Origin: Oscillospiraceae bacterium
GTDB taxonomy: Bacteria; Bacillota; Clostridia; Saccharofermentanales; Saccharofermentanaceae
Assembly (NCBI GenBank): GCA_902787975.1
Contig: CADAIP010000006.1
Span: 11,193-75,192 of the forward strand
Direction of reading: 5' to 3'
DNA: 64,000 nt
In this document: positions 40,808-55,939 of the stretch, in pieces
Numbering within the stretch: the first letter of the stretch is position 1
Layout: each line of letters starts with the position of its first letter
Notes under the pieces: model-generated
The model's input: only the letters and a program-made list of their open reading frames with translations
What the model was told of the DNA's origin: nothing
Databases searched by the model: none
Translations under genes and position numbers: made by a program

Positions 40808-41424
40808 TATTTTGTTCTCCCGTAATGTCTGTTGAATTGTATTATGTGTTCGTCTAATGTCTTGAGTGCTTCGGGCTCTCTTTCAGGATCCCTGTCGCAC
40901 ATCGTAAGAAGGAAGTAGATCGGTGCGTAGAAGTGGAGGGTCATTATCTTCACGTTGTCAGTGTGAAGCATTCCTGCTGCTGCGACCATTCCGAGAAGCA
41001 TGCTCTGGTATGAGAGCGGATCATCGACATAAAGCTTTGTGTAAATCCCTGCAAGTTCCTTGCTGTTGAACTGCTCGATCGTGAGCATCTTCCGGAAGCG
41101 TTTGTTGTAGTCGTCGTGAAGATAGAAGAGGAAGAATTCGCGTCCGAGTTTGAGAAGATTTTCTTCAGACATGTTCTGATATATTTTCGAATCCACGGCA
41201 GCATCGGTACCGCTGATCTGAAGTGCTTTGGCCTGCTCAGCGAATCTGGAATTCATCAGATCGATTATGGCGTCGAAAATCGCTCTTTTATTTTTATAGT
41301 GTTTATATAATGACGGCGCCTTTATTCCGACCCGCTCAGCGATGTCGCCGACAAAGACATTCGCGTAACCTTTCTCGGAAAAGAGTGTAAGTGCTTCATC
41401 AAGAATTCTCTGCTTTGTATCCAT
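40807..41424 (-). CDS. TetR/AcrR family regulator
   Basis: 'TKQRILDEALTLFSEKGY...IAERVGIKAPSLYKHYKNK'. Confidence 0.93.
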   Translation of the reverse strand: MDTKQRILDEALTLFSEKGYANVFVGDIAERVGIKAPSLYKHYKNKRAIFDAIIDLMNSRFAEQAKALQISGTDAAVDSKIYQNMSEENLLKLGREFFLFYLHDDYNKRFRKMLTIEQFNSKELAGIYTKLYVDDPLSYQSMLLGMVAAAGMLHTDNVKIMTLHFYAPIYFLLTMCDRDPEREPEALKTLDEHIIQFNRHYGRTK

Positions 41425-41523: not shown

Positions 41524-41559
41524 AAACCTATTGACTTAGTGGGTTAATGGAATTAATAT
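41524..41559 (+). promoter_or_regulatory. Rrf2-like sulfur box over the iscS promoter
   Basis: AAACCTA-TTGACTTAG-TGGGTTA; TTGACT-N17-TAATAT. Confidence 0.75.
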
Positions 41560-41593: not shown

Positions 41594-42778
41594 ATGATTT
41601 ATGCTGACAACGCGGCAACCACTCCAATGAGTGAAGCTGCAATCAACACAATGACAACTCTTATCAGAGAAACTTACGGAAATCCTTCAAGCCTTTACGA
41701 GTTCGGCCAGAAGGCAAAGGAAGTATTGGAGCAGGCAAGAGAAGATACTGCTGCGCTTATCGGTGCTGATGCCAAGGAAATAATATTCACATCAGGCGGA
41801 AGCGAAGCTGACAACCAGGCGATCATATCAGCTGCAAAGGCAGGCGCGCTCAAGGGCAAGAAGCACATCATCTCAAGCAAGTTCGAACACCATGCTGTTC
41901 TTCACACATTGAAAAAGCTCGAGAATGAAGGATTCGAAGTTACACTACTTGATGTTCACGAGAACGGTATCATCGATCCTTCTGAAGTAGAAGCAGCCAT
42001 CCGTGAAGATACCTGCCTGGTAACGATCATGTACGCAAATAATGAGATCGGTACAATTCAGGACATTAAAGGTATCGGTGCAGTCTGCAGAGCTAAGGGC
42101 GTTATCTTCCACACAGATGCAGTTCAGGCAATAGGACACCTTAAGATCAATGTAGTTGAAGAGAATATCGACATGCTCTCAGCATCCGCACACAAGTTCC
42201 ACGGACCTAAGGGCGTAGGATTCCTTTATGCAAGAAAAGGCATAAGGCTTGCAAATCTTATCGAAGGCGGCGCTCAGGAGAAGGGCAAGAGAGCTGGTAC
42301 GGAGAATGTTCCGGGAATCGCTGCGATGGTTACTGCTCTTAAGGAAGAAGTTGCAAATATCGATAAGAACACAGCGCACATCCTTCCTATCAGAAACAAA
42401 ATAATCGAAGGTCTTAAGGAGATCCCTCATTCAGCATTAAATGGCGATGAGGAAAGAAGACTTCCGAGCAACGTTAACTTTTGCTTCGAAGGTATCGAAG
42501 GCGAATCACTTTTGCTCTTACTTGACGATAAGGGTATCGCAGCATCTTCGGGAAGCGCATGCACATCAGGATCACTGGATCCTTCACACGTTCTTCTTGC
42601 GATCGGCAGAGTACACGATGTTGCACACGGTTCATTGAGACTCAGTCTCGGCGAAGATGTTACTGAGGAAGAAGCCGATTACATCATTAAGGCTGTTAAG
42701 GAAGTTGTTGAATACCTGAGAGGTTTTTCGCCGGTATGGAGAGATCTCGTAGCAGGAAAAACACAGTTTATTTTATAA
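41594..42778 (+). CDS. iscS: Cysteine desulfurase
   Basis: 'YADNAATT', 'FHTDAVQ', 'SAHKFHGPKG', 'SSGSACTSGS'. Confidence 0.95.
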   Translation: MIYADNAATTPMSEAAINTMTTLIRETYGNPSSLYEFGQKAKEVLEQAREDTAALIGADAKEIIFTSGGSEADNQAIISAAKAGALKGKKHIISSKFEHHAVLHTLKKLENEGFEVTLLDVHENGIIDPSEVEAAIREDTCLVTIMYANNEIGTIQDIKGIGAVCRAKGVIFHTDAVQAIGHLKINVVEENIDMLSASAHKFHGPKGVGFLYARKGIRLANLIEGGAQEKGKRAGTENVPGIAAMVTALKEEVANIDKNTAHILPIRNKIIEGLKEIPHSALNGDEERRLPSNVNFCFEGIEGESLLLLLDDKGIAASSGSACTSGSLDPSHVLLAIGRVHDVAHGSLRLSLGEDVTEEEADYIIKAVKEVVEYLRGFSPVWRDLVAGKTQFIL

Positions 42779-42790
42779 GGGGGCATCAAC

Positions 42791-43168
42791 ATGGCTTTAT
42801 ATAGTGAGAAAGTAATGGATCATTTCAGAAATCCGAGAAACGTAGGCGTTCTTGAAGACGCAAACGGTGTAGGCACAGTAGGTAACGCTAAGTGCGGGGA
42901 CATCATGAAGATGTATCTCAAGATCGAAGACGATATAGTCAAGGACGTTAAGTTCGAGACATTCGGATGCGGCAGCGCTATCGCATCAAGCTCAATGGCT
43001 ACAGAGCTCATCAAGGGCAAGCCTGTTGAAGAAGCAAGACAGCTTACAAACAAGGCTGTAGCAGAAGCTCTTGACGGACTTCCGGATTATAAGATGCACT
43101 GCTCAGTCCTTGCGCAGGAAGCTATTGAAGCTGCACTTAAGGACTACGAATCAAGACAGGAAGAATAA
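42791..43168 (+). CDS. iscU: Fe-S cluster scaffold (IscU/NifU N-terminal type)
   Basis: 'YSEKVMDHFRNPRNVG', 'CGD', 'FGCGSAIAS', 'KMHCS'. Confidence 0.95.
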   Translation: MALYSEKVMDHFRNPRNVGVLEDANGVGTVGNAKCGDIMKMYLKIEDDIVKDVKFETFGCGSAIASSSMATELIKGKPVEEARQLTNKAVAEALDGLPDYKMHCSVLAQEAIEAALKDYESRQEE

Positions 43169-43189: not shown

Positions 43190-43224
43190 TAACCTATTGA
43201 CACAGTAGGTTTATGTGGCATAAT
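43190..43224 (+). promoter_or_regulatory. Rrf2-like sulfur box over a sigmaA promoter
   Basis: TAACCTA-TTGACACAG-TAGGTTT; TTGACA-N16-(TGn)CATAAT. Confidence 0.8.
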
Positions 43225-43259
43225 AAGTCCATGCCATAGAAAATCAAGGAGGCGTAAAA

Positions 43260-43358
43260 ATGTTTAGGATCATGTGTTGTCGAATGCATTATACAAGGGC
43301 TGAATCGGCCATGGCGTTTGACTGCACGAATATGCGCCTTGTCGATGTACGATGTTGA
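43260..43358 (+). CDS. Cys/Met-rich leader peptide 1 (32 aa)
   Basis: AAGGAGG RBS; MFRIMCCRMHYTRAESAMAFDCTNMRLVDVRC*. Confidence 0.8.
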   Translation: MFRIMCCRMHYTRAESAMAFDCTNMRLVDVRC

Positions 43359-43384
43359 CTTCAATATAAAACATCAAACTCCAC

Positions 43385-43419
43385 AGCCCGGGAAACTCGC
43401 TCATCCCGGGCTTTTTTAT
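43385..43419 (+). terminator. Attenuator terminator of leader 1
   Basis: AGCCCGGGA-N10-TCCCGGGCT-TTTTTAT, 28 nt before the mccB-like ATG. Confidence 0.85.
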
Positions 43420-43446
43420 GCAAATTACGAAAAGAGGTAAATAAAC

Positions 43447-44601
43447 ATGACTTACAAAAGAAATTCTTTACTTATTCACGGCGGTATCGATGGAGATGAG
43501 ACAACAGGAGCAGTAAATGTTCCCGTTTACCAGACATCAACATATAAGCAGGACGGCCTTGGCAAGAACAGAGGCTGGGAATATTCCAGAACCGGCAACC
43601 CGACAAGAGCAGCACTCGAGAAGCTGATCGCAGATCTTGAAGAAGGACAGTACGGTCTCGCATTTGCATCAGGTCTTGCAGCGATCAACACAGTGCTTTC
43701 TCTCTTCAAATCAGGTGACAAGCTCATCGTATCTGATAACATCTACGGCGGAACATTCCGTATTCTCGATAACGTTTTCAAGAACTTCAATATCACATAT
43801 AAGATCGTTGATACATCTGATCTTGAAGTAGTCGAAAATGCTATCGACGACGATGTAAAAGCAATCTACATCGAGACGCCTGCAAACCCTCTTCTTACCA
43901 TCACTGACATCGAAGCAGTATCAAAGATCGGAAAGAAGCATAACAAACTCGTTATCGTCGATAACACATTCCTCACACCTTATCTGCAGAGACCTTTGAC
44001 TCTTGGTGCTGACATCGTTATCCACAGCGGTACAAAATATCTTGGCGGACATTCAGATACGATCTCCGGATTTGTAGTAGTAAACGACAAGCAGCTTGCT
44101 GACAGACTTTACTATCTCCAGAATGCGATCGGCGGCGTACTCGCTCCCTGGGACAGCTTCCTTATCATCAGAGGAATCAAGACATTGGGTGTGCGTATGG
44201 ACAGACATGTGGCGAACGCAGGCAAGATTGCAAAGTGGCTTTCTGAGAGTGGCTACGTATCCAAGGTTTACTATCCCGGACTTGAATCAGATCCCGGCTA
44301 TGAGATCCAGAAGAAGCAGGCTGACGGAGCAGGCGCGATGATCTCATTTGTTCTTAACGACAAGTACGATTACAAGAAATTTTTCGAGCAGCTTCAGCTT
44401 ATAACGCTCGCAGAGAGTTTGGGCGGTGTTGAGTCACTCGTATGCCATCCCGCAACGATGACTCACGCAGCGATCCCTGCTGACATCAGAAAAGAAGTCG
44501 GCATCGTTGATGAGCTCATCAGACTTTCAGTAGGCATTGAGGACGTTGATGATCTTATCGAAGATCTGAAACAGGCAATCGAGAATTCAGTTAAAGCTTG
44601 A
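43447..44601 (+). CDS. mccB: Cystathionine gamma-lyase/synthase (MccB/MetB family)
   Basis: 'YSRTGNPTR', 'ETPANP', 'DNTF', 'HSGTKYLGGHSD', 'AESLGGVESL'; paired with an MccA-like gene. Confidence 0.8.
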   Translation: MTYKRNSLLIHGGIDGDETTGAVNVPVYQTSTYKQDGLGKNRGWEYSRTGNPTRAALEKLIADLEEGQYGLAFASGLAAINTVLSLFKSGDKLIVSDNIYGGTFRILDNVFKNFNITYKIVDTSDLEVVENAIDDDVKAIYIETPANPLLTITDIEAVSKIGKKHNKLVIVDNTFLTPYLQRPLTLGADIVIHSGTKYLGGHSDTISGFVVVNDKQLADRLYYLQNAIGGVLAPWDSFLIIRGIKTLGVRMDRHVANAGKIAKWLSESGYVSKVYYPGLESDPGYEIQKKQADGAGAMISFVLNDKYDYKKFFEQLQLITLAESLGGVESLVCHPATMTHAAIPADIRKEVGIVDELIRLSVGIEDVDDLIEDLKQAIENSVKA

Positions 44602-44609
44602 GGTGAAAT

Positions 44610-45524
44610 ATGAATAACGTATATGACAATATCAGAGAAATGATCGGCAAAACTCCGATCATCAAGATCAATCACATGGGCGTCAAGCCCGGTGTAAATA
44701 TCTATGCAAAACTCGAATTGATGAATCCCGCAGGAAGCGTTAAAGACCGTGTAGGCGTTTACATGATCGATGATGCAAAGAAGAGAGGTCTTCTCAAAGA
44801 AGGCGGAACGATCATTGATGCTACCGCAGGAAACACAGGTATCGGAATCGCGGTTGCCGCGCTTAACCAGGGATACAGGGTAATCTTCACGGTGCCTGAG
44901 AAATTCTCTGTTGAGAAGCAGATTGTAATGAAGGCTTTGGGCGCAGAGATAGTCCACACGTCAAGAGAAGGCGGAATGTTAGGCGCGGAAGAAAAAGCAG
45001 AAGAGATGCTTAAGACGATTCCGGATTCCATTTCATTAAGACAGTTCAGAAACCCCGCAAATCCTCTGGCTCATTATGAGACAACAGGTCCTGAGATCTA
45101 TTCACAGCTTGACGGCAAGATTGATTATTTTGTTGCAGGCGCAGGAAGCGGAGGAACATTCTCGGGAGTGGTTAAGTATCTGAAAGAGCAGAACCCCGGT
45201 GTCGTAGGTGTTCTTGCAGATCCTTACGGATCAACGATCGGCGGCGGTGAGCATTTCGATTACAACATCGAAGGAATAGGCAACGATTTCATCGCTGACA
45301 CGATGGATATCACATTGGTGGATAAGGTCATAAAGATCAACGATGACGAGGCATTTGCAGCTTCAAGAAATCTCGCAAAGCATGAAGGCATCCTTGCAGG
45401 ATCTTCATCCGGTGCGGCACTTGCTGCGGCACTCAAGCTTGCGGAAGAAATCGATGAAGGAAACATAGTAACGGTTTTCCCTGACAGAGGAGACAGATAT
45501 TTAAGCAAAGGATTATATGACTGA
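44610..45524 (+). CDS. Cysteine synthase family protein (MccA/CysK-like; probable OAS-dependent cystathionine beta-synthase)
   Basis: 'NPAGSVKDR', 'ATAGNTGIG', 'GAGSGGT', 'IEGIG', 'GSSSGA'. Confidence 0.85.
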   Translation: MNNVYDNIREMIGKTPIIKINHMGVKPGVNIYAKLELMNPAGSVKDRVGVYMIDDAKKRGLLKEGGTIIDATAGNTGIGIAVAALNQGYRVIFTVPEKFSVEKQIVMKALGAEIVHTSREGGMLGAEEKAEEMLKTIPDSISLRQFRNPANPLAHYETTGPEIYSQLDGKIDYFVAGAGSGGTFSGVVKYLKEQNPGVVGVLADPYGSTIGGGEHFDYNIEGIGNDFIADTMDITLVDKVIKINDDEAFAASRNLAKHEGILAGSSSGAALAAALKLAEEIDEGNIVTVFPDRGDRYLSKGLYD

Positions 45525-46531
45525 TGGAAACGGTATATGAATTAAAAAACGTATCCAAGATATATAAGAACGACGGTAAAGAATTCACGGCGTTAAAAGA
45601 CGTAAGCCTTACGATAAACGAAGGAGAGATCTTCGGCATCATTGGAATGAGCGGCGCGGGCAAATCAACACTTGTACGTACGCTTAACAGACTTGAGGAA
45701 GTATCTTCAGGTTCGGTCGAGTTCTATGGAAAAGATCTTGCAACACTTAAGCCGGCGGAACTTCGCTCTGTGCGTCACAGCATCTCAATGATCTTCCAGG
45801 GATTTAACCTCGTTAACCAGCGCACCGTTATCCAGAACGTTGAACAGTCCATGAAGATAATCGGCCTTTCCCGTGCCGTCCGCCGCGAAAAGGCAAAGCA
45901 GATGCTTGAAGTCGTAGGTCTTCTTGAGAAGGCAAATGAATATCCCGCGCGTCTTTCGGGCGGCCAGAAGCAGAGAGTTGCAATAGCAAGAGCACTTGCC
46001 GTAGACCCGAAGGTGCTTTTGTGCGACGAGGCAACGAGCGCACTTGACCCGAAGATCACAAACGAGATACTGGATCTTTTGAAGAAGATCAACGAAGAAA
46101 GAAAACTTACGATAGTCATCATCACTCACGAGATGAGCGTGGTCGAGAAGATCTGCGACCGCGTTGCGATCATTGACAATGGTACGCTTGCTGAAGTCGG
46201 AGAGGTAAAAGAGGTATTCTCAAATCCCCAGTCGAAAGCAGCGAAAAAACTGGTCTTCCCGAGCAATCCTTTTGATCCGTCTGACGAGAGCGGACAGATC
46301 GTAAGGATCGTTTTCGACGGTACGCAGTCGAATGTTCCGTTCATTGCAAATCTCGTCGAAGAAACAGGTCTTAAAGTAAATATCTTAAGTGCAAATACAA
46401 GAAGTGTCGGCGGTATCGGCTACGGCCAGATGATCATCGAGCTTCCTGAGTTGGCAGAAGACCGCCAGACGGTCATCGACTTCTTCAAAAAAGGCGGACT
46501 GTCTGTATCGGAGGTGAACAGAAATGAGTGA
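45524..46531 (+). CDS. metN: Methionine ABC transporter ATP-binding protein
   Basis: [16 protein letters not shown], 'CDEATSALDP', C-terminal NIL domain 'VNILSAN'. Confidence 0.92.
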   Translation: METVYELKNVSKIYKNDGKEFTALKDVSLTINEGEIFGIIGMSGAGKSTLVRTLNRLEEVSSGSVEFYGKDLATLKPAELRSVRHSISMIFQGFNLVNQRTVIQNVEQSMKIIGLSRAVRREKAKQMLEVVGLLEKANEYPARLSGGQKQRVAIARALAVDPKVLLCDEATSALDPKITNEILDLLKKINEERKLTIVIITHEMSVVEKICDRVAIIDNGTLAEVGEVKEVFSNPQSKAAKKLVFPSNPFDPSDESGQIVRIVFDGTQSNVPFIANLVEETGLKVNILSANTRSVGGIGYGQMIIELPELAEDRQTVIDFFKKGGLSVSEVNRNE

Positions 46532-47177
46532 TTATATTAGAGATGCGATCATAACGGGTGTCTGGGAGACGTTTGTAATGACGTTCTTCGCTTCGCTTTT
46601 TTCATATGCGGTCGGAATGCCTTTGGGAGTCCTGCTCTATGCGACTTCAAAAGGACGCCTGCTCGAGAACAGGCCTGTTAACTTTATTATCGGAGCCATC
46701 GTAAACATCACGCGTTCATTGCCGTTCCTGATCCTGCTCGTGCTCCTCATCCCGTTTACGAGATTTATCGTAGGCCAGTCCATCGGTACCACGGCTGCGA
46801 TCGTACCTCTAACGATAGGCGCTATCCCGATCGTTGCGAGAATGGTCGAGTCCTCGCTTAATGAGGTGCAGCCCGGCATTATCGAAGCGGCAACTTCCAT
46901 GGGCGCATCGCCTTTATATACGATAATTCACTTTATTATTCCTGAAGCAACACCTTCACTTCTTCAGGGCGGTGCGATCAATGTGGCAACCGTATTGGGA
47001 TACTCTGCCATGGCAGGTGTTATCGGAGGCGGCGGACTTGGTGCGATCGCCCTGCAGTACGGCTACTACCGCTACCAGAAAGACGTTCTCTTTACGACCG
47101 TTACATTGCTGATAATCATGGTAATGCTTATTCAGGAGATCGGTATCTTCATATCCAAGAAGAACAGGAAGACATAA
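46524..47177 (+). CDS. metI: Methionine ABC transporter permease
   Basis: 'RSLPFLILLVLLIPFTRFIVG.SIG', 'YSAMAGVIGGGGLG'. Confidence 0.92.
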   Translation: MSDYIRDAIITGVWETFVMTFFASLFSYAVGMPLGVLLYATSKGRLLENRPVNFIIGAIVNITRSLPFLILLVLLIPFTRFIVGQSIGTTAAIVPLTIGAIPIVARMVESSLNEVQPGIIEAATSMGASPLYTIIHFIIPEATPSLLQGGAINVATVLGYSAMAGVIGGGGLGAIALQYGYYRYQKDVLFTTVTLLIIMVMLIQEIGIFISKKNRKT

Positions 47178-47282
47178 AAGGAACCGTAAACATAAGAAGG
47201 TAATATAATTCATTTTTGCACCTCCAAAATGCTATAATTTTTCTATCTGAACGATAGTCTGATTATTGCCGGGAGGTGCTAA

Positions 47283-48407
47283 ATGGATAAATCAAAAGTG
47301 TATTTTACTGATTTTCGTACGGGTCTTGGTACGCCTCTTACTGCCAAGCTTCAAAAGCTCATAAAGCTTGCGGGAATCCAGTCTATCGATATGGACAACA
47401 AGTTTGTTGCCATAAAAATGCATTTCGGCGAACTCGGAAATCTCGCTTATTTAAGGCCCAATTATGCCAAGGCTGTTGCCGATGTCGTTAAAGAATTGGG
47501 CGGTATGCCTTTCCTTACCGACTGCAACACGCTTTATCCCGGAAGCCGTAAGCATGCGCTCGAGCACATGGACTGCGCAAACATCAACGGTTTTAACACG
47601 GTTACTACCGGATGCCAGATAATCATCGCTGACGGACTTAGAGGAACTGACGACATAATCGTTCCCGTTCCCAATGGTGAGTACTGCAAGGAAGCTTACA
47701 TCGGCCGTGCCGTAATGGATGCCGATATCTTTATCTCCCTTACGCATTTCAAAGGACATGAACAGGCCGGATTCGGCGGCTGTATAAAGAACATCGGCAT
47801 GGGATGCGGTTCCCGTGCGGGTAAGATGCAGCAGCACCAGAGCGGTCATCCGCATGTCATTACGGAGCGCTGCAGAGGATGCAAGCGGTGTTCCAAGGAA
47901 TGCGGTTCCGATGCGTTCATCTACGAGAATGGCAAAGCAAGGATAGATCCCGCTAAGTGCAAAGGCTGCGGCCGCTGCATCGGAGCATGCTCTTTCGATG
48001 CGATCGAAAACGATAACTGGGATGCAGCATCGATGCTCGGTAGAAAGATGGCAGAATATACTGCTGCGGTTATCAGCGGCAGACCAAGTTTCCACATCAG
48101 CCTCATCACTGACGTATCACCGAACTGTGACTGTCACGGAGAAAACGATGCACCCATCCTTCCAGACATCGGTATGCTCGCTTCTTTTGATCCTGTCGCT
48201 CTTGACCAGGCATGCGTTGATCTTTGCCAGAAGGCTGAGCCTGTAAGCAACAGCCAGCTCGGAGACAATATGAGAAGCGCACACTTCCACGACCATGGGG
48301 ATGTATGGCATAACAGCAATCCTAATGTCTCATGGGCAGAAACACTTGAGCATGGAGAGAAGATCGGAATAGGAACTCGTGATTACGAGCTCGTGATCAT
48401 GAAGTAA
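47283..48407 (+). CDS. DUF362 domain Fe-S protein with two [4Fe-4S] motifs
   Basis: 'KMHFGE', 'TDCNTLY', 'CRGCKRC', 'CKGCGRCIGAC', 'SPNCDC'. Confidence 0.85.
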   Translation: MDKSKVYFTDFRTGLGTPLTAKLQKLIKLAGIQSIDMDNKFVAIKMHFGELGNLAYLRPNYAKAVADVVKELGGMPFLTDCNTLYPGSRKHALEHMDCANINGFNTVTTGCQIIIADGLRGTDDIIVPVPNGEYCKEAYIGRAVMDADIFISLTHFKGHEQAGFGGCIKNIGMGCGSRAGKMQQHQSGHPHVITERCRGCKRCSKECGSDAFIYENGKARIDPAKCKGCGRCIGACSFDAIENDNWDAASMLGRKMAEYTAAVISGRPSFHISLITDVSPNCDCHGENDAPILPDIGMLASFDPVALDQACVDLCQKAEPVSNSQLGDNMRSAHFHDHGDVWHNSNPNVSWAETLEHGEKIGIGTRDYELVIMK

Positions 48408-49309
48408 TGAGAAAACCTGCAATATTCAAAATCCTGATATTTATCGTTGCAACGGCCATATTACTGGCTTCGTGCACGTCAAAGCCTGTTAATTCCAAGC
48501 CGAACAGGACAGCGGTCGAGAACGAGAGACAGCTGATCAAAGAAAGACTGATCAAGATCGAAGATGAATATCCGCGATTTGAATATTCAATATCCATGCC
48601 AATAGTCGAGAAGACTGAAGGCCGTTCCAGGGATGTGGTTTTTTACCGCGATGGCGGAGCGATCTACGGCAGGCTTACCGTGCCCAAAGGTCAGGGTCCG
48701 TTTAAGACGATAATAATCGTGAACGGCCTTTATGCTCCGCTCGGAAGATATTCTGATAAAGCCGAACATTATGCCGAGCACGGATATGCTGTAATCGAAT
48801 TTCTCTGTCAGAATGGTACTCCTCCGGAAAGCGGCGATGATCCTGAGTGGCTCGGAAATTTTATTGTCGATCAGATCCTGGATCTTTATGCGGTAATCGA
48901 TTCATGCTCGTATTTCGCAGAAGTCGATACTTCAAACCTTTATCTATACGGACACAGCATGGGCGGCATGGTCGCATCTTATGCCGGAACGTTCAGACAG
49001 GATGATATCAAAGGCATGATACTTGTCGATCCGAGTTTTTATGCTCCCGACATCATGTGGTTCGAGAATGACATAGAACTGATCACGACTGATATCTATC
49101 CGCTCTTTAAGACCTGCAAGATCCCTGTGGCCATTTTTACGGGAACTGAAGGAAGCTTCGGAGAAGATCCCGAATTCTTCAAGCCTGCATTGGCAGCTTT
49201 CCCGAATGTGGAGTTCATCGTTATCGAAGGGGCCACACATACGATGGACGGAGTGGAAGGCGAACATCTTGTCGATCTCTCTGTTGAATTAATCGCTTCC
49301 TGGGGATAA
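48407..49309 (+). CDS. Alpha/beta hydrolase lipoprotein
   Basis: Lipobox 'LLASC'; 'GHSMGG'. Confidence 0.8.
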   Translation: MRKPAIFKILIFIVATAILLASCTSKPVNSKPNRTAVENERQLIKERLIKIEDEYPRFEYSISMPIVEKTEGRSRDVVFYRDGGAIYGRLTVPKGQGPFKTIIIVNGLYAPLGRYSDKAEHYAEHGYAVIEFLCQNGTPPESGDDPEWLGNFIVDQILDLYAVIDSCSYFAEVDTSNLYLYGHSMGGMVASYAGTFRQDDIKGMILVDPSFYAPDIMWFENDIELITTDIYPLFKTCKIPVAIFTGTEGSFGEDPEFFKPALAAFPNVEFIVIEGATHTMDGVEGEHLVDLSVELIASWG

Positions 49310-49339
49310 ACTCTTTCCAAACCCCGGAGGAGACTTCTG

Positions 49340-49852
49340 ATGATCATTCTGATTACAGGCGCATCACATACAGGAAAAACATTTCTCGCAAAAAAGTTTG
49401 TAGAGAAATATCACTACTCATGCCTGTCGATCGACCATCTGAAGATGGGGCTAATAAGGAGCGGATATACAGATCTTACTCCTTTGGATGATGACAAACT
49501 CACTGATTATCTCTGGCCTGTAGTAAGGGAGATGATCAAGACAGCGATCGAGAATAACCAGGACATGATCGTTGAAGGATGCTATGTGCCGGCTACCTGG
49601 CAAAAAGACTTTGACGAACAGTACCTTTTTTCGATAAGATTAATATGTCTGGCATTTACAGAAGAATACATTGAGAAGAATTTTGACAACATAATATCCA
49701 ACGCATCCGTTATTGAGAAAAGACTGTGTGACGATTTAACAAAAGAAGTTCTTATAAGGGACAACAGGCAATTTCTTGAAGGTTTCGGTCAGCAGGTGAC
49801 TCTGATCGAAGACAGTTACGAACAGACAGTAGATTCGCTTTTGCAAGATTGA
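49340..49852 (+). CDS. P-loop kinase-like protein
   Basis: 'ITGASHTGKT', 'SIDHLKMGLIRSG', 'IVEG'. Confidence 0.75.
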   Translation: MIILITGASHTGKTFLAKKFVEKYHYSCLSIDHLKMGLIRSGYTDLTPLDDDKLTDYLWPVVREMIKTAIENNQDMIVEGCYVPATWQKDFDEQYLFSIRLICLAFTEEYIEKNFDNIISNASVIEKRLCDDLTKEVLIRDNRQFLEGFGQQVTLIEDSYEQTVDSLLQD

Positions 49853-49865
49853 CGGGGAAAAGATT

Positions 49866-50678
49866 ATGGAAAGAATAGACGAAGTATATGAGTTCTATAA
49901 TGGCGGTGCGGAGATAGGACGTCTTGAACGCGGACTTGGTGTTGTTGAATTCTGGAGAAGCAAAGAGATCATCAGCAGATACCTTAACGGTAAGCTGAAG
50001 ATATACGATGTCGGCGGCGGCATCGGAATGTATGCTGACTGGCTCGCATCTAAGGGCCATAAAGTAACCTTGATCGAACTCGCTCCCACGGCTGTTGAAT
50101 ACGCAAAGGAACACATGACGACACCTTATGAAGCTGAGGTCGGTGATGCGCGCAAACTCGATAAACCCGATAACAGCGCAGACATGGTTCTCCTCATGGG
50201 CCCTTTGTATCACCTGATGAATAAAGAAGACAGGCTGCTTGCATTGTCGGAAGCCCACCGTGTCCTTAAGCCGGGCGGCATTCTTATCGCGGCAGGCATC
50301 TCGAAGTTTAGCAGCGCAACTTGGGCACTGACGGTTTACGGTACTGCAAATGAGTTCCTCGATGATGACATCTACATGGACATGATAATCCGTGAGATGA
50401 AAAAAGGTGAGCACATAAGACCGAGGGAATATCCGTTCTTTATTTCGAATGCATATTTCCATACGATCGACAGATTGAGAAACGAAGTTTCCGAAGCTAA
50501 GTTTAAGATTATCGAGAGTGCGGCTGTTGAAGGATGCGCATGGATCACTCCTGATATCGTTGATAAGTGGAGTGACGACAGAAAGCGCGAACGGCTCCTT
50601 CGCATAATCAGGACAACTGAACATGAAGAAACTCTGATGGGCATAAGCCCTCACTTCTTAGTCACTGCATTAAAATAA
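49866..50678 (+). CDS. Class I SAM-dependent methyltransferase
   Basis: 'IYDVGGGIG', 'GDARKL', 'LLMGPLYHL', 'LKPGG'. Confidence 0.9.
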   Translation: MERIDEVYEFYNGGAEIGRLERGLGVVEFWRSKEIISRYLNGKLKIYDVGGGIGMYADWLASKGHKVTLIELAPTAVEYAKEHMTTPYEAEVGDARKLDKPDNSADMVLLMGPLYHLMNKEDRLLALSEAHRVLKPGGILIAAGISKFSSATWALTVYGTANEFLDDDIYMDMIIREMKKGEHIRPREYPFFISNAYFHTIDRLRNEVSEAKFKIIESAAVEGCAWITPDIVDKWSDDRKRERLLRIIRTTEHEETLMGISPHFLVTALK

Positions 50679-50732
50679 CAAAAGGTGTTTTGTATAATTA
50701 GGTAAGCATATTCTTCAAAAGAGGTTTTATCC

Positions 50733-51974
50733 ATGAAGATCACTACCGGAGATACAATGCACGTTTACGGTGCTATCGGCGCCGGGGTTGATTATGCCGT
50801 CCGTTTCAAGGTCAGACTTAAAGATAAGATCGATCCTGATGCATTGAAATCTTCTGTGTCTTCTGCGTCTTTAAGATTCCCGTATTTCATGGGACGTCTG
50901 GTCTCTACGGCCGAGTCTTTTGAATATGCAGATAACGATCTTCCTATTGCAGTCATAAACAGTGAAGCAAGAGTCATTCTTAATTCTGCCATGACCAATT
51001 ATCACGTGTGGGCGGTATCTTTTCTGGATGACTTCATTTATCTCGATTTCTTCCACGGAATAACTGACGGCACGGGCATGTACAGAGTGCTCGCTACGAT
51101 CCTTTATCATTACTGCAAAAACGTTTATGGAATAGATCTGATTCCTGAACTGGAAGCATCTGATATTGAAGCAGAGATGGCAGATCCGCAGGATACCATC
51201 GAAGAAGTCCCCGCACCGGAAACGTCTTACACTCCTGCATTTACTTTGGAGACAGACGGCGGACTTACGAAGTCGTCACCTGTCATTTGGGACGTTAAGA
51301 TCCCTGAAGACGCATTCATTAAATTCGTGCGCGAAAACGATTCCACTCCGGGTACGATGGTCGAACTCCTGATGGGCAAAGCTATCAATTCGCTTTATCC
51401 TGACAGGTCAAAACCCATCATCAGTTCATATGTCATAAACGCAAGACCGATGGTCGGCGCTGAAGCTACTAATCATAACTGCCTCGGCATGTCCATCTTC
51501 GATTATTCTCCGCTCGTAAACTCCATGCCTCTTTCTACTCAGGGCACGGTTTACCGCGGCAAGACGTTCGTGCAGAGCAGGGAAGAACAGGTCGCAGCAG
51601 GTCTTGCGGTCAATGCTTCAACTGTTAAAGGAATAATGAATTCGACTCCTTCCCTCAAAGCTCGTAAAGATATCTTCACGGCGATGTTTAACGGCGGTGA
51701 AGGTTTCATAAGTTATCTTGTAAGTTATCCCGGCAAATGGAAATATCCGACGATCGGACAATACATGAAAGAGTTCTGGACACACCCTCCGTGCACTTTC
51801 AGTCTTATGGTTATCTTAGGCGCTGCCGGAGGCAATATATCGCTCTCGATCCAGCAGAGATTTTCCGGATCTTCCGTTGTTAATGCGTTCCTATCACTTC
51901 TTGAAGAAAACGGCATCCCGTATGAAGTTATATCTTCCGGAGCAAGTGATGTCGCCGGATTTGAATCACCCTGA
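50733..51974 (+). CDS. Standalone CoA-dependent acyltransferase/condensation-fold protein
   Basis: 'FFHGITDG' (HxxxDG motif). Confidence 0.55.
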   Translation: MKITTGDTMHVYGAIGAGVDYAVRFKVRLKDKIDPDALKSSVSSASLRFPYFMGRLVSTAESFEYADNDLPIAVINSEARVILNSAMTNYHVWAVSFLDDFIYLDFFHGITDGTGMYRVLATILYHYCKNVYGIDLIPELEASDIEAEMADPQDTIEEVPAPETSYTPAFTLETDGGLTKSSPVIWDVKIPEDAFIKFVRENDSTPGTMVELLMGKAINSLYPDRSKPIISSYVINARPMVGAEATNHNCLGMSIFDYSPLVNSMPLSTQGTVYRGKTFVQSREEQVAAGLAVNASTVKGIMNSTPSLKARKDIFTAMFNGGEGFISYLVSYPGKWKYPTIGQYMKEFWTHPPCTFSLMVILGAAGGNISLSIQQRFSGSSVVNAFLSLLEENGIPYEVISSGASDVAGFESP

Positions 51975-52050
51975 TTTTTCGGATCCTTATGTTATAATCC
52001 TCTAATATCGGAAGCGAAGTTATTTCTATTTGAGGATAAAGGAATTTATT

Positions 52051-52545
52051 ATGAACATTAATGACATGACAGTTCCCTGTTGTGATGGTTTTATCAACAT
52101 CAGGGTAGGGGCGATCATCCTGAAAAACGGAAAATTCCTGATGGTGGGAAACACTGGCGTTGACTATCTTTATTCCGTAGGCGGAAGGATACATTTCGGT
52201 GAGACTGCCGAAGAAGCAGTTATCCGTGAAGTTTTCGAAGAGACCGGAATAAAGATGGAAGTAGACAGGCTCGGGTTTATCCACGAGAATTATTTCTACG
52301 GAGATACCCAAAGAAACATGGGCAAACTTGTTTACGAAGTGTCGTATTTCTTCTACATGAAAGTGCCTGAAGATTTTGAGCCCGTATCAAGTGACTTTAA
52401 TGAAGACGGATGCAAAGAACATCTCGTTTGGGCAAGCGTTGATGATGAGATCACAATGTATCCGGATTTCTACAGAAGCGAGTTATCCCACCCTTCTGAA
52501 GGGGTAAAATTTTTTGTGACTGATGAGAGAAAAAAGGGGAAATAA
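52051..52545 (+). CDS. NUDIX hydrolase
   Basis: 'GGRIHFGETAEEAVIREVFEETG'. Confidence 0.92.
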   Translation: MNINDMTVPCCDGFINIRVGAIILKNGKFLMVGNTGVDYLYSVGGRIHFGETAEEAVIREVFEETGIKMEVDRLGFIHENYFYGDTQRNMGKLVYEVSYFFYMKVPEDFEPVSSDFNEDGCKEHLVWASVDDEITMYPDFYRSELSHPSEGVKFFVTDERKKGK

Positions 52546-52547
52546 GA

Positions 52548-53333
52548 ATGGAAAAACTTGAGTTATTTGTTAAGCAGCTTACACCTGATATTTATCTAAT
52601 GGATGAAGGCCACATGGCTACGGGATATTTTGTTGTGGGCGAAGATAAGGTCTGCGTTATCGATACGATGAACGGTTTCAACGACCTCAAAAAAGTCGTA
52701 AGGGAAGTTACTGACAAGCCTATCGTTGTAGTAAATACACACGGTCATCCGGATCACATTTTCGGCAATGTATATTTTGATGAAGCGCTCCTCGACCCTA
52801 AGGATCTTGAGCTTGCGGAGTCATTCGTTGACGAACCTGAATTCAAGGAAGCATGTGATAAATACGGTTTTAAGATGCCTCCGTTTAAGTCGATCAATGA
52901 AGGTGATGTTATTGATCTCGGTGGTAAGACTTTGGAAGTCTTTGAGATTCCCGGACATACTCCGGGAAGCATCGTTCTGCTTCTCAGGGAAGACAGAATC
53001 CTGTTCACGGGTGATGCTATAAATCACCATCTCTGGATGCAGCTTGACGGTTGCTCAACGCTTAATGAATATGTGAAAGCGTTGGACAATATTATGTTCC
53101 TTGAAGATCGTGCTGACCGCATTCTTCACGGTCATGCACGCGACTTCGATGACATCTCTCTTATGAGATGCATGCGCAACGGAATCAAGGAAATATGCGA
53201 CGGCAAAACATCTGAAGACAAACCTTATGAATGGTGGGGCGGTGTCGGCAAACAGCATTCATTTAGTCTTTTGGAAGGTAAGACATACAGCCAGCCTGAC
53301 AGCGTTGTGTGCTATGTTCCTTCGAATATATAA
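52548..53333 (+). CDS. MBL-fold metallo-hydrolase
   Basis: 'THGHPDH', 'PGHT', 'TGDA', 'HGH'. Confidence 0.92.
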   Translation: MEKLELFVKQLTPDIYLMDEGHMATGYFVVGEDKVCVIDTMNGFNDLKKVVREVTDKPIVVVNTHGHPDHIFGNVYFDEALLDPKDLELAESFVDEPEFKEACDKYGFKMPPFKSINEGDVIDLGGKTLEVFEIPGHTPGSIVLLLREDRILFTGDAINHHLWMQLDGCSTLNEYVKALDNIMFLEDRADRILHGHARDFDDISLMRCMRNGIKEICDGKTSEDKPYEWWGGVGKQHSFSLLEGKTYSQPDSVVCYVPSNI

Positions 53334-53356
53334 TTTGAAATTGTGAGGTTACAAGA

Positions 53357-53902
53357 ATGATTTTATCTGACAGAACAATACTTAAGATGCTCGAAGAAAA
53401 AACACTTACTATCGAGCCTGTTACAAAAGAACAGATACAGCCTGCAAGTGTCGATATCAGATTAGGCCGCACTTTCAGTGTCGTTGACGATACACCTTCA
53501 AGCGTTATCACTCTCGAAAATGAGATCAAATATAAGACCATCACGACTGATACTTATCTCATCATGCCGGGTCAGTTTGTTCTTGCTACCACGATGGAAT
53601 ATTTCGAGCTTCCCGATAACCTCACCGCATTTGTGGAAGGCAGAAGTTCGCTCGGCAGAATGGGTCTTTTCATCCAGAATGCCGGATGGGTAGATCCCGG
53701 ATTTAAAGGTGAGATAACACTTGAACTTTATAACGCAAACAGATGCGCTATTGAACTTAAGGCGGGAAGAAGAGTAGGCCAGCTCGTTTTCGCTGAGATG
53801 GATGATCATGCTCTTAATCCTTATGACGGAAAGTACCAGGGCCAGAAGGGCGCTACGGGCTCTCGCGTCTTTAAAGATGCCGAAAACCCATTGACAAAAT
53901 AG
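53357..53902 (+). CDS. dcd: dCTP deaminase
   Basis: '[11 protein letters not shown]', '[10 protein letters not shown]', '[14 protein letters not shown]', 'YQGQ'. Confidence 0.95.
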
Positions 53903-53919
53903 GGAAATGATGTTAACTT
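53884..53919 (+). promoter_or_regulatory. Rrf2-like sulfur box and sigmaA promoter embedded in the dcd 3' end
   Basis: AAACCCA-TTGACAAAA-TAGGGAA; TTGACA-N17-(TGn)TAACTT. Confidence 0.6.
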
Positions 53920-53949
53920 TATCGCAATCATATTGAAGGAGGAAAGACA

Positions 53950-54030
53950 ATGAAACGCATTACGGCCACTATGATCTGTATGTGCTGTACTGAAGTCGTC
54001 CTCCCGCATATGACCGGAGTGATCTGTTAA
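53950..54030 (+). CDS. Cys/Met-rich leader peptide 2 (26 aa)
   Basis: AAGGAGG RBS; MKRITATMICMCCTEVVLPHMTGVIC*. Confidence 0.78.
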   Translation: MKRITATMICMCCTEVVLPHMTGVIC

Positions 54031-54069
54031 ACGCATGATTAAGATCACAAACTGAATAAAGGTTACTGT

Positions 54070-54103
54070 ACGGGAGTTCTGATGAATTCCCGTTATTGTT
54101 TTT
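54070..54103 (+). terminator. Attenuator terminator of leader 2
   Basis: ACGGGAGTTC-tgat-GAATTCCCGT-TATTGTTTTT. Confidence 0.75.
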
Positions 54104-54134
54104 GAAAAATATAGAATTAAAGGAGAATAAAAAC

Positions 54135-54698
54135 ATGAGCAGTAAAGACAATCATAAGAACAATTTGAAGAAGATAGCATACGCAGGTGTGCTTGCCGCA
54201 TTGGTATTCGTAGGTACCGAACTTCACATTCCGACAGCAATCGGACACATCAATTTAGGTGACCTCGTAATACTTGTAAGTTCGTATATCTTAGGACCAT
54301 TCGCATTCGTTCCCGCAGCTATCGGATCGACGCTTGCAGATCTTCTTGCAGGTTATCCCCAGTACGCAGTAGCAACATTCCTGATCAAGGGTATCATGGG
54401 ACTCGTTGCAGGACTTTTGCTTAAGAGAAACAGGGAAGGCAAGACTTCATTTTTCAGAAAGCTCTCCGTCTCTTTAGTTGCAGAGCTCATCATGATCGCA
54501 GGTTACTTCGCATTTGAATCACTGCCGTTTATGTATGGTGTTGAAGCAGCATTGGGCTCTGTAATCCCTAATGGTATCCAGGCAAGTGCTGCAATCGTAG
54601 GAGCAGTTCCGCTTATGTATGTGAAGCTTTTCGACAAATACCAGCTCTCGCAGAATAGCGAAATTCATAAGAATAAAGAAAAAACAGCAGTATCTTAA
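54135..54698 (+). CDS. ECF transporter S component (intact)
   Basis: 'LAALVFVGTELHIPTAIGHINLGD', 'AIGSTLADLLAGYPQY', 'IKGIMG'; AGGAG RBS. Confidence 0.88.
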   Translation: MSSKDNHKNNLKKIAYAGVLAALVFVGTELHIPTAIGHINLGDLVILVSSYILGPFAFVPAAIGSTLADLLAGYPQYAVATFLIKGIMGLVAGLLLKRNREGKTSFFRKLSVSLVAELIMIAGYFAFESLPFMYGVEAALGSVIPNGIQASAAIVGAVPLMYVKLFDKYQLSQNSEIHKNKEKTAVS

Positions 54699-54756
54699 TA
54701 ACCCTGAAACCCCTAAAAACAAAGCGTTTTCGAAGACATCGAAAAATATTTTCAAT

Positions 54757-54792
54757 AAACCTATTGACACGGTAGGTTTGTAGTAGTAAAGT
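54757..54792 (+). promoter_or_regulatory. Rrf2-like sulfur box (perfect arms) over a sigmaA promoter
   Basis: AAACCTA-TTGACACGG-TAGGTTT; TTGACA-N17-TAAAGT. Confidence 0.82.
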
Positions 54793-54823
54793 ATCGCCAT
54801 CACAACGAAAGGAGGAGTGAGAA

Positions 54824-54946
54824 ATGTATAGAACAGATAACAGAACAACAGTCATGATGTGTTGTCGAATGTTCAGCTCCCGGGTGCGCAATATGGCACA
54901 GGGCGCAGGATACAATTCCTCACGCCTTGAGATAGATCGATGTTAA
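54824..54946 (+). CDS. Cys/Met-rich leader peptide 3 (40 aa)
   Basis: AAAGGAGG RBS; MYRTDNRTTVMMCCRMFSSRVRNMAQGAGYNSSRLEIDRC*. Confidence 0.8.
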   Translation: MYRTDNRTTVMMCCRMFSSRVRNMAQGAGYNSSRLEIDRC

Positions 54947-54975
54947 AGCAGTAACTTGCATTTGAAGATATGCCA

Positions 54976-55012
54976 TGCGCCCGGGAGATAAATCTGACCC
55001 GGGCATTTTTAT
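54976..55012 (+). terminator. Attenuator terminator of leader 3
   Basis: GCCCGGG-N12-CCCGGGC-ATTTTTAT. Confidence 0.78.
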
Positions 55013-55072: not shown

Positions 55073-55939
55073 ATGAAGAACATATTTAAGAAGGCAATCG
55101 CCGCAGGACTTTTACTCGCAATCACAGGCTCATTTGCAGCTTGCTCACAGGCTAAAGCAACAACAGTTAACGCAGGAACAGTAGGAAGTGACACACAGGT
55201 AACAGAGAATGTCGTTCTCACGGTAGGCGCAAACATCACACCTCACGCAGAGATCTTGGAAGTTGCAAAGCCGATCCTCGCAGAGCAGGGAATCACACTC
55301 GAGATCGTAAGACTCGAAGATTCCGTTACACCTAACACAGGCGTTATCGAAGGCTCACTTGACGCAAACTATTTCCAGCACGTTCCTTACCTCGAACAGT
55401 TCAATAAAGAAAACGGTTCAGATCTTGTTTCAGTTGGCGCAGTCCACTATGAACCCTTCGGCATCTATGCAGGCAGAGTAAAAGATCTTAAGGACCTCCA
55501 GGATGGCGCAGTGATCGCAGTTCCCAACAACGTAACAAACGAAGCAAGAGCACTTCTCCTCCTCGCACAGGAAGGCATCATCAAGCTCAAGGACGATGCA
55601 GGAATCAATGCAACAGTAGAAGACATCGTAGAGAATCCTCTTAACATCCAGTTCAAGGAACTCGCACCTGAGCAGCTCGTTGCAGCACTTCCTGACGTAG
55701 ATGTAGCAGTCATTAACGGTAACTACGCAATCGAGGGCGGTCTGCACGTAAGCGAGGCACTCGCAGTAGAGGCTAACGACGGTCTTGCAGCACAGACATA
55801 CGGAAACATCATTGCAACATCACCTGATAAGGCAAACGATCCTGCAGTTAAGGCTCTTGTTGAAGTTCTTCAGGGACCTGAAGTTGCAAAGTTCATCGAA
55901 GATACATATGACGGTGCAGTAGTACCTCTCTTCGGTTAA
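55073..55939 (+). CDS. metQ: Methionine ABC transporter substrate-binding lipoprotein (MetQ/NlpA)
   Basis: Lipobox 'FAAC'; 'TPHAEILE', 'DANYFQHVPYL', 'HYEPFGIY', 'VPNNVTNEARALLLL'. Confidence 0.92.
   Translation: MKNIFKKAIAAGLLLAITGSFAACSQAKATTVNAGTVGSDTQVTENVVLTVGANITPHAEILEVAKPILAEQGITLEIVRLEDSVTPNTGVIEGSLDANYFQHVPYLEQFNKENGSDLVSVGAVHYEPFGIYAGRVKDLKDLQDGAVIAVPNNVTNEARALLLLAQEGIIKLKDDAGINATVEDIVENPLNIQFKELAPEQLVAALPDVDVAVINGNYAIEGGLHVSEALAVEANDGLAAQTYGNIIATSPDKANDPAVKALVEVLQGPEVAKFIEDTYDGAVVPLFG

Follow-up and report, generated by a model that had tools for sequence, protein, structure and literature searches.

What do three short, cysteine-rich open reading frames (ORFs) do at the head of three sulfur loci in a rumen clostridium? 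They lie in a 64-kb stretch of an Oscillospiraceae bacterium genome (assembly GCA_902787975.1, contig CADAIP010000006.1, positions 11,193 to 75,192 of the forward strand), here called the window, from a rumen Clostridia genome; its closest relatives are labelled, for instance, Saccharofermentans or Mageeibacillus. The sulfur-related genes of interest span 41.5-57 kb of the window, and within 12 kb three loci are each headed by a short ORF (sORF) with a run of Cys codons: L1 (43191-43418), before a four-gene operon that begins with an mccB-like gene; L2 (53886-54103), before a gene for an ECF-type S component; and L3 (54758-55010), before metQ. In Firmicutes, leader-peptide attenuation counts as rare; textbooks assign the control of sulfur amino acids to T-boxes, S-boxes and CymR. 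Judged from sequence comparison and RNA folding, the three cassettes are probably ribosome-mediated transcription attenuators that read the charging of tRNA-Cys, and possibly that of elongator tRNA-Met too.

The cassettes share one order of parts: a promoter overlapped by an operator, a strong Shine-Dalgarno (SD) sequence, a leader ORF of 26-40 amino acids, an intrinsic terminator and the first structural gene (Table 1). All three leader peptides contain M-C-C and end in Cys-stop, and a 15-mer, ATGTGTTGTCGAATG, is identical between L1 and L3. The SD AAGGAGG stands 7-8 nt ahead of the ATG in all three, as expected of a translatable ORF, and the predicted 5' untranslated region (UTR) of about 25-30 nt with its consensus SD means that the leaders are not leaderless. 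Terminator hairpins of -14.7 to -16.8 kcal/mol, each followed by a T run, separate the ORFs from the first genes. The SDs of the downstream genes lie 20-60 nt past the terminators and outside the alternative helices, which does not fit control by unmasking a ribosome-binding site. The initial annotation had proposed this set of parts and had placed the antiterminator strands at +22, +18 and +17 nt from the first Cys codon of the pair; every element is found at its claimed position at all three loci, and the offsets measure +22 (for the GGGCUG core), +17 and +17, within 1 nt of the proposal.

Genome comparison shows that such leaders are widespread. Eighty genome loci around mccB homologues were fetched, and 77 mccB loci from rumen and gut Clostridia and Fibrobacter were scored for an SD-preceded sORF upstream, on the sense strand, with at least three Cys in eight residues including a Cys-Cys pair. 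A Cys-dense sORF of this kind lies upstream at 43 of the 77 loci; the control counts are 3 for the antisense strand and 0 and 3 for equal-length downstream regions. Most loci of rumen and gut Clostridia, Ruminococcus, Lachnospiraceae and Fibrobacter carry an SD-preceded sORF with a run of two to six Cys codons, directly 5' of mccB or of a cysK-like gene that precedes it. The peptides diverge (MCCRM, MCCCM, NCCCCCE-stop, ICCCCCCR, VCCC-stop, MCCMMCC), and the Cys run is the only part common to them. Homologues of the L1 leader occur at loci L001 and L008, with related types among L002-L018. In rumen metagenome contigs the L2 type is represented by 12 distinct leaders (M..TM.CMCC..V.LP.M.G..C-stop) upstream of homologues of the ECF S-component gene, and the L3 type by 17 distinct leaders (MYRT...MMCCRM.SRVR.MAQG...SSRLENDRC-stop) upstream of metQ. 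Fibrobacter, which belongs to another phylum, has Cys-run leaders of its own, such as MTQNLMNICCCCWGRCRTGD-stop (loci L024, L030, L035, L037, L039, L043 and L044). The initial annotation had staked its idea on conservation in related genomes, and all three leader types do recur, with the position of the pairing kept.

Some leaders depart from these types. A natural L3-type variant (L113, 3133-3249) stops two codons early and has lost the terminal Arg-Cys, and an L2-type variant (L086, 2313-2390) carries M-C-R in place of M-C-C. A further family, M..MCCMMCC....HTHA..RRC.., lies about 1.0-1.2 kb 5' of mccB, before the gene that precedes it, at Ruminococcus and Oscillospiraceae loci L027, L036, L041, L047, L056, L058, L065, L067, L076, L078 and L079.

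The leader ORFs bear the marks of translated sequence. Throughout the L3 alignment, gap runs inside the ORF are multiples of three (11 of 11, each 3 or 15 nt), against 36 of 38 outside it that are not, and almost every L3-family leader is closed in its two alternative frames. Both TGT and TGC encode Cys across the leaders. Cysteine accounts for 1.6% of codons in the window's genes, and each of the three leaders has a Cys-Cys pair. A terminal Cys is found in 16 of 45 distinct leaders, and a Cys within the last three residues in 24 of 45. In L1 and L3 the codon CGA stands twice, right after the Cys pair and just before the terminal Cys, although only 3.1% of the Arg codons of the window's genes are CGA; it is nearly invariant in homologues, and its retention could reflect slow decoding or a constraint from RNA pairing. 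The equally rare CGG occurs in the antiterminator strand of L3 and in neither that of L1 nor that of L2.

Methionine codons cluster with the Cys run as well. In 30 of 45 distinct leaders the residue just before the run is Met. Among the three residues flanking the run on each side Met reaches 28%, whereas it accounts for 6% of residues elsewhere in the leaders and for 3.0% of codons in the window's genes. Together with the Met importer genes metNIQ among the controlled genes, this pattern suggests a refinement in which a stall at either AUG or UGY within the M-M-C-C-R-M cluster would give readthrough, which would turn the device into a switch for sulfur amino-acid starvation in general. We take dual sensing to be possible but lean against it. 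Clostridium species have a Cys-only T-box at the same operon; induction of a Met-to-Cys pathway under Met scarcity would be counterproductive, if that direction holds; and Met starvation would hit the initiator Met as well. The Met flanks may also have other causes, such as a P-site tRNA that is unable to slip at a hungry codon, or RNA pairing through AUGUG.

The position of the antiterminator strand relative to the Cys run speaks for attenuation. This strand, region 2, is a copy of the terminator 3' arm and can pair with the terminator 5' arm. Hand inspection of 15 leaders put the start of the 5' arm's best partner between +12 and +20 nt from the first Cys codon in every case. The mccB and L3 families keep TGYTGY-N14-CCGGG to the nucleotide even though the 14 nt have diverged. 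An automatic survey of 43 leaders placed 22 partners in the interval +10 to +24, against 13% expected (p ~3e-9), a value that overstates the case because the sequences are related and not independent. The automatic terminator and antiterminator caller is noisy on distant leaders, where it returns over-long hairpins (L2, L018, L100), and the antiterminator geometry of the MCCMMCC family did not come out of it; the hand-checked and Fibrobacter sets are more reliable. Fibrobacter leaders have an unrelated terminator, UCCCGCUC...GAGCGGGA-U7. Its 3' arm, too, has a copy in the leader, 15-33 nt downstream of the first Cys codon and roughly +19 when counted from the run's last Cys. This layout is the strongest sequence-independent support for the geometry.

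Transcription would start at a sigma-A-type promoter whose -35 element lies inside a palindromic operator, probably bound by a repressor that would also control nifSU, and a ribosome would load at the strong SD and translate the leader ORF. When Cys-tRNA is scarce, the ribosome would stall when one of the Cys codons of the M-C-C cluster occupies its A site, and its leading edge would lie a few nucleotides before region 2. Free region 2 would then pair with the emerging terminator 5' arm, letting the polymerase read into the sulfur genes. With Cys-tRNA plentiful, the ribosome would proceed over region 2, and behind it, in L1 and L2, upstream or SD-proximal pairing would capture this strand, so that the terminator forms and transcription stops. 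The initial annotation had likewise read Cys-tRNA shortage as the signal for readthrough, an interpretation supported by the recurrence of the leaders, retention of the frame, the fixed distance of the strand and the exchange with a T-box described below. We infer the stalling, its kinetics and whatever blocks region 2 of the L3 type after the ribosome has passed, and likewise what the terminal Cys codon, the CGA codons and the SD-sequestering helix do.

Folding models are largely consistent with this course. RNA truncated just after the terminator 5' arm was folded under a 28-nt ribosome mask. With a Cys codon in the A site, the 5' arm is predicted to be paired with a probability of 1.00 in L3, 0.71 in L2 and 0.45 in L1; with the ribosome 4-9 codons further on, pairing falls to 0.25-0.49, and at +2 codons L1 still gives 0.57. 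Equilibrium probabilities of the full terminator under the masks are nearly constant and uninformative, because the local hairpin dominates once it is fully transcribed. Without a ribosome, region 2 of L1 is sequestered in a stem with the Cys-codon region and that of L2 with the SD (53925-53947), its alternative partner being CGGGAG of the terminator 5' arm; termination after ribosome passage is plausible in L1 and L2 because the free RNA sequesters region 2.

A second helix accompanies the switch. In every family the SD and its spacer are complementary to a distal segment of the leader: CUCACGCCUU in L3, AUGCGCCUU in L1, UUGCUGUCU (the second Cys pair) in L003-L006, and region 2 itself in L2. 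Spacer and partner change together between families, and L107 of the L3 family shows a compensatory change from G-C to A-U. Its effect may be that each leader is translated only once, or that terminated leader RNA is kept silent.

Several observations weigh against attenuation by a stalled ribosome. By itself, only the L3 antiterminator duplex is better than chance (-26.1 kcal/mol, 0 of 200 shuffles as good); those of L1 (-13.0 kcal/mol, 40 of 200) and L2 (-11.9, 30 of 200) are not, and both are credible because their position is conserved across homologues. L3-type RNA, free or with a ribosome at the stop codon, is predicted to fold into the 16-21 bp antiterminator. Because the naked RNA prefers this form, termination of the L3 type under Cys sufficiency needs a kinetic condition, which might be a ribosome on region 2 during terminator synthesis, trailing ribosomes or a polymerase pause. 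The first of these is conceivable with a polymerase about 100 nt ahead of the ribosome, as in Bacillus. Counted from the first Cys codon, the stop codons come at +81 (L1), +45 (L2) and +84 (L3) nt. Region 2 is well behind at that point, the ORF having run about 55-60 nt past the antiterminator strand, and for this reason the geometry is not strictly trp-like. The initial annotation had likened it to the trp, phe and his attenuators, which holds for a strand beyond the footprint of the stalled ribosome (+12 to +22 nt, counted from the first Cys codon), but not for the end of the ORF, which is not beside region 2.

Covariation within families is weak and no more than suggestive, since the cores of the helices do not vary. 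In the L3 antiterminator, L107 and L141 have a compensatory change from G-C to A-U at columns 96/189, and there is one G-U change; the extension of the L2 antiterminator has three pairs changed on both sides, with shuffle controls at 37/500 and 41/500; and 97.5% of cells are paired in the L2-family terminator. The covariation that the initial annotation looked to is present as compensatory changes in L3 and L2, though weak overall. The strand at +12 to +22 nt and the mask modelling together describe an alternative antiterminator even so. The 384-residue mccB-like enzyme falls short of the curated cut-offs both of cystathionine gamma-lyase/homocysteine desulfhydrase and of gamma-synthase, and the direction of transsulfuration assumed in the initial annotation (Met to Cys) is not established. 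A search of 5.8 billion proteins with a two-peptide alignment gave no match; it required three shared 5-residue words, so absence is not shown by it.

Finally, L3-family nucleotides are very highly conserved even at third codon positions, and this near-invariance indicates RNA-level constraints beyond a simple leader peptide. Conservation of this kind, which extends over the 5' UTR, the post-Cys region and the distal ORF and includes synonymous positions, would suit a new riboswitch or a site for a metabolite-sensing RNA-binding protein, with the ORF incidental or secondary, as would the several alternative helices. Such a switch is improbable. Unlike families, even in another phylum, have in common just an SD, an ATG and a Cys run at a fixed distance from the antiterminator; gaps preserve the reading frame; and neither a common aptamer-like fold nor an Rfam match was found.

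The peptides themselves could instead be the product, as Cys-rich micropeptides that bind metals, act in redox reactions or serve as precursors of modified peptides, co-expressed with the sulfur genes. The ORFs are conserved and well placed for translation, as this would require, yet outside the Cys run they diverge freely. Conserved residues such as S/T-R-A are accounted for by the CCCGGGC pairing strand. A terminator always follows, and no match to a protein family or database was found, the protein search being limited by its word index. This alternative is scarcely credible.

Attenuation through the leader ORF gains from a comparison with Clostridium. An Rfam scan of the whole window, at the gathering threshold and with E up to 5, returned only two chance snoRNA-like matches. 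The models found no T-box (RF00230) in the window, though the same model detects T-boxes at orthologous Clostridium operons, and no S-adenosylmethionine (SAM) riboswitch (RF00162 and its clan), though that model detects one at locus L021. The statement in the initial annotation that no S-box or T-box is visible is borne out for the whole window. Six Clostridium mccB loci without a Cys sORF carry a T-box at the equivalent position (L021, L023, L026, L046, L052 and L059). That of C. ljungdahlii (L021, 2840-3091) has the specifier GAA-G-UGC-A, in which UGC reads Cys, and an antisense SAM riboswitch lies downstream at 8673-8793 on the minus strand. The ubiG-mccBA operon of C. acetobutylicum has the same arrangement of Cys T-box and antisense SAM riboswitch (PMC2566862). 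Because the Clostridium loci carry a Cys T-box, the orthologous mccB operon appears to be under a tRNA-Cys sensor in both groups, the device differing.

Upstream of the leaders lies a probable second level of control. The -35 element TTGACA sits inside the palindrome AACCTATTGACAnnGTAGGTT at the leader promoters. The 21-nt operator has three matches in the window with at most three mismatches, against 0.00 expected in shuffles; the L2 copy is degenerate (three mismatches). Among homologous leaders the operator is present at 39 of 42, 61-76 nt 5' of the leader ATG, against a background of 0.026 per 130 nt, and dual control by operator and leader is considered conserved because the two go together so often. 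As the motif ACCTATTGACAnnGTAGGT also overlaps the -35 of the nifS-nifU promoter, the sequence suggests a single repressor, perhaps Rrf2-, CymR- or IscR-like, governing both Fe-S assembly and sulfur amino-acid genes. A motif search and a Pfam scan of small ORFs found no Rrf2 or CymR gene in the window. The gene divergent from nifS (40807-41424) belongs to the TetR family, and the operator motif was not matched to any published consensus.

Regulation might on this evidence rest with the repressor, the terminator being a constitutive dampener and the Cys-rich ORF a by-product. Besides the 39 operator-bearing leaders, the operator at leaderless nifSU points that way, and a Cys-responsive Rrf2 regulator beside iscSU is known in C. 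perfringens (PMC2940859). We nevertheless judge control by the repressor alone very improbable: it leaves unexplained the enrichment of Cys codons, the fixed antiterminator distance and the very existence of that strand, and the mccB leaders L009, L010 and L016, like those of Fibrobacter, lack the operator but retain the Cys ORF and the terminator.

Assembled metatranscriptome contigs, the only RNA data considered, are compatible with the attenuator model and not decisive. In four rumen metatranscriptomes no contig covers the L3 promoter region (54724-54800); one contig from 54816 reads through the L3 terminator into metQ, which is expressed in rumen metatranscriptomes, and another, X30, runs from 54830 to 55001, its end falling within the terminator. 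The L1 counterpart begins at 43241, some 10 nt 3' of the predicted start, and reads through. All three contigs begin just beyond the predicted promoters. In run X6 a contig spans the promoter, where DNA carry-over or readthrough from nifU is possible. Taken together, these contigs fit transcription from the predicted promoters with terminated and readthrough forms. A contig from run X27 matches the L1 leader over 43241-43468 and then continues in unlike sequence; an L1-type leader may therefore precede a different gene in another strain.

The genes behind the leaders are listed with the other features in Table 1. Contigs L088, L099 and L107 have no separate leader for the ECF S-component gene, which comes straight after a metI-like permease gene there; the component is tied to methionine or sulfur uptake on this ground. 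A second PF07155 ECF S-component ORF lies at 14748-15125, with neither Cys leader nor operator upstream; the region before it resembles that of L117 and L119.

Table 1. Features of the three leader cassettes and their surroundings, in window coordinates.
Feature	Position	Strand	Remarks
Fourth operator copy, AACCTATTGACTTAGTGGGTT	41525-41545	+	over -35 of nifS-nifU promoter; no leader ORF or terminator after it
nifS-nifU operon	41594-43168	+	
L1 promoter, operator AACCTATTGACACAGTAGGTT	43191-43211	+	-35 TTGACA 43197-43202; TG-extended -10 CATAAT 43219-43224
L1 SD, AAGGAGG	43246-43252	+	also 5' strand of SD-sequestering helix with 43332-43341
L1 leader ORF, 32 aa, MFRIMCCRMHYTRAESAMAFDCTNMRLVDVRC then stop	43260-43358	+	
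L1 regulatory codons, ATG TGT TGT CGA ATG	43272-43286		TGT TGT at 43275-43280
L1 antiterminator 5' strand, CAAGGGCUG	43294-43302	+	complementary to CAGCCC, terminator base; +19 to +27 nt from first Cys codon
L1 terminal codons, CGA TGT TGA	43350-43358		
L1 intrinsic terminator, AGCCCGGGA..UCCCGGGCU	43385-43412	+	T6 to 43418; -16.8 kcal/mol
L1-controlled operon, 4 genes	43447-47177	+	
Cystathionine gamma-lyase/synthase family gene (mccB-like)	43447-44601	+	ATG at 43447
cysK/mccA-like gene	44610-45524	+	
metN	45524-46531	+	
metI	46524-47177	+	
L2 operator, degenerate, ACCCATTGACAAAATAGGG	53886-53904	+	-35 TTGACA 53891-53896
L2 leader ORF, 26 aa, MKRITATMICMCCTEVVLPHMTGVIC then stop	53950-54030	+	
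L2 Cys codons	53977, 53983, 53986, 54025 (terminal)		Cys pair 53983-53988
L2 antiterminator strand, CCUCCCGCAU	54000-54009	+	+17 nt from Cys pair
L2 intrinsic terminator, ACGGGAGUUC..GAAUUCCCGU	54070-54093	+	T-rich tail to 54103
ECF-type S component, L2-controlled	54135-54698	+	PF07155; weak TIGR04002 match
L3 promoter, operator AACCTATTGACACGGTAGGTT	54758-54792	+	operator includes -35; -10 TAAAGT
L3 leader ORF, 40 aa, MYRTDNRTTVMMCCRMFSSRVRNMAQGAGYNSSRLEIDRC then stop	54824-54946	+	..VMMCCRM..RLEIDRC-stop
L3 regulatory codons, ATG ATG TGT TGT CGA ATG	54854-54871		Cys pair 54860-54865
L3 antiterminator 5' strand, CUCCCGGGUGC..AUGGC	54877-54898	+	partner 54973-54988
L3 anti-SD segment, CUCACGCCUU	54919-54928	+	complementary to SD and spacer GAGGAGUGAG, 54812-54821
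L3 terminal codons, CGA TGT TAA	54938-54946		
L3 terminator, GCCCGGGAG..CCCGGGC	54979-55004	+	feature 54972-55010; upstream extension belongs to antiterminator; T run
metQ (MetQ/NlpA lipoprotein), L3-controlled	55073-55939	+	ATG at 55073
SD-helix pairs	L1 43246-43252 with 43332-43341; L2 53925-53947 with 53994-54014; L3 54812-54821 with 54919-54928		
Met-flanked Cys clusters	43272-43286; 53971-53988; 54854-54871		
CGA after Cys pair and before terminal Cys	L1 43281-43283, 43350-43352; L3 54866-54868, 54938-54940		

The cassettes might do more than a Cys version of trpL. They could form a two-checkpoint "sulfur ribulon" suited to a polymerase that outruns the ribosome, a scheme that we consider doubtful. 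The Met and Cys cluster, slowed by rare CGA, may sense both sulfur amino acids, and the terminal CGA-Cys-stop may serve as a second check. The SD-sequestering helix may restrict translation to one pioneer ribosome, while the long ORF tail may hold that ribosome on the RNA as the distant terminator is transcribed. On the same scheme, Cys T-boxes may have been displaced in many rumen and gut Clostridia, and the Fibrobacter leaders may reflect independent origin or spread.

Whatever the fate of that extension, tRNA-Cys-sensing attenuation would have several consequences. The findings indicate a large unannotated class of Cys-codon attenuators that controls how abundant anaerobes of rumen and gut (Oscillospiraceae, Ruminococcus, Lachnospiraceae and Fibrobacter) take up Met and Cys and carry out transsulfuration. 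With the Clostridium Cys T-box, the class would give a clean natural example of two tRNA-charging sensors substituting at one operon. Annotation could improve for thousands of metagenome-assembled genomes, in which these sORFs are uncalled or "hypothetical", and membership in the regulon hints that the ECF S component probably carries a sulfur amino acid or a precursor. The leaders also offer a compact Cys-responsive part for engineering anaerobes, and with their long ORF tail, terminal Cys and SD sequestration they open ribosome-polymerase timing in Gram-positive attenuators to experiment. In the literature no account of Cys leader peptides was found for Firmicutes, Clostridia or Fibrobacter, within a coverage that is incomplete and does not make absence a proof; the initial annotation, too, pointed to none in Clostridia.

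Among known systems, the classical trp, his, leu, thr, pheA and ilv attenuators of Proteobacteria share the promoter, the SD and the short ORF with tandem cognate codons. They also share the mutually exclusive antiterminator and terminator before a biosynthesis or uptake operon, with a stalled ribosome freeing the antiterminator strand. Unlike them, the present leaders are predicted to sense Cys, with Met codons alongside, run about 55-60 nt past region 2 and often end in a second Cys codon, and add an SD-sequestering helix and a promoter-overlapping operator; their hosts are Clostridia and Fibrobacter, and there is neither sequence similarity nor an Rfam match. Naville and Gautheret remarked that hardly any leader peptides were known outside Proteobacteria and Actinobacteria, and predicted His leaders in Bacilli (PMC2965389).

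Cys-codon sORFs have an established precedent in mycobacteria, which the initial annotation had cited. There, polycysteine leaderless sORFs form a "Cys ribulon" that acts on translation (Canestrari et al., bioRxiv 10.1101/834739), and Cys sORF control without terminators had been predicted earlier in Actinobacteria (PMC1262725). Both systems place Cys-codon runs in short upstream ORFs at several sulfur or cysteine loci per genome, as at the three loci here, and ribosome pausing makes a regulon there, as it would here, without a dedicated factor. The precedent does not extend to the mechanism: mycobacterial sORFs are leaderless and unmask the downstream ribosome-binding site, with no terminator hairpins at the studied locus, whereas the leaders described here have a strong SD, a 5' UTR, a canonical intrinsic terminator and an operator. 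Similar in design is the uORFC-8-2 motif 5' of cysS in Rhodobacterales, predicted to combine two tandem Cys codons with an intrinsic terminator (Brewer et al. 2021, PMC8632094). A tandem-Cys upstream ORF followed by a terminator, and the same proposed mechanism, are common to both, and the mechanism is a prediction there too; uORFC-8-2 differs in its hosts (Alphaproteobacteria), its restriction to cysS, its Cys codons inside the first stem at about codons 14-15 and its unrelated sequence.

At the level of the promoter, the palindromic operator common here to Cys/Met genes and to the nifS/iscS-nifU/iscU operon is what a CymR/IscR-type (Rrf2) regulon of Firmicutes would lead one to expect. In C. 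perfringens a Cys-responsive Rrf2 regulator adjoins iscSU (PMC2940859); the searches of the present window found no Rrf2 gene. The Cys-specific T-box of the Clostridium ubiG-mccBA operon (Andre et al. 2008, PMC2566862; PMC2940859) shares the target operon, the signal (uncharged tRNA-Cys) and the output (antitermination), but binds tRNA directly and needs no translation, and none occurs in the window. Collectively, these comparisons place the cassettes within a known mechanism, ribosome-mediated transcription attenuation, and support the view that what is new here is the family, the phylum, the set of genes and the unusual features of design.

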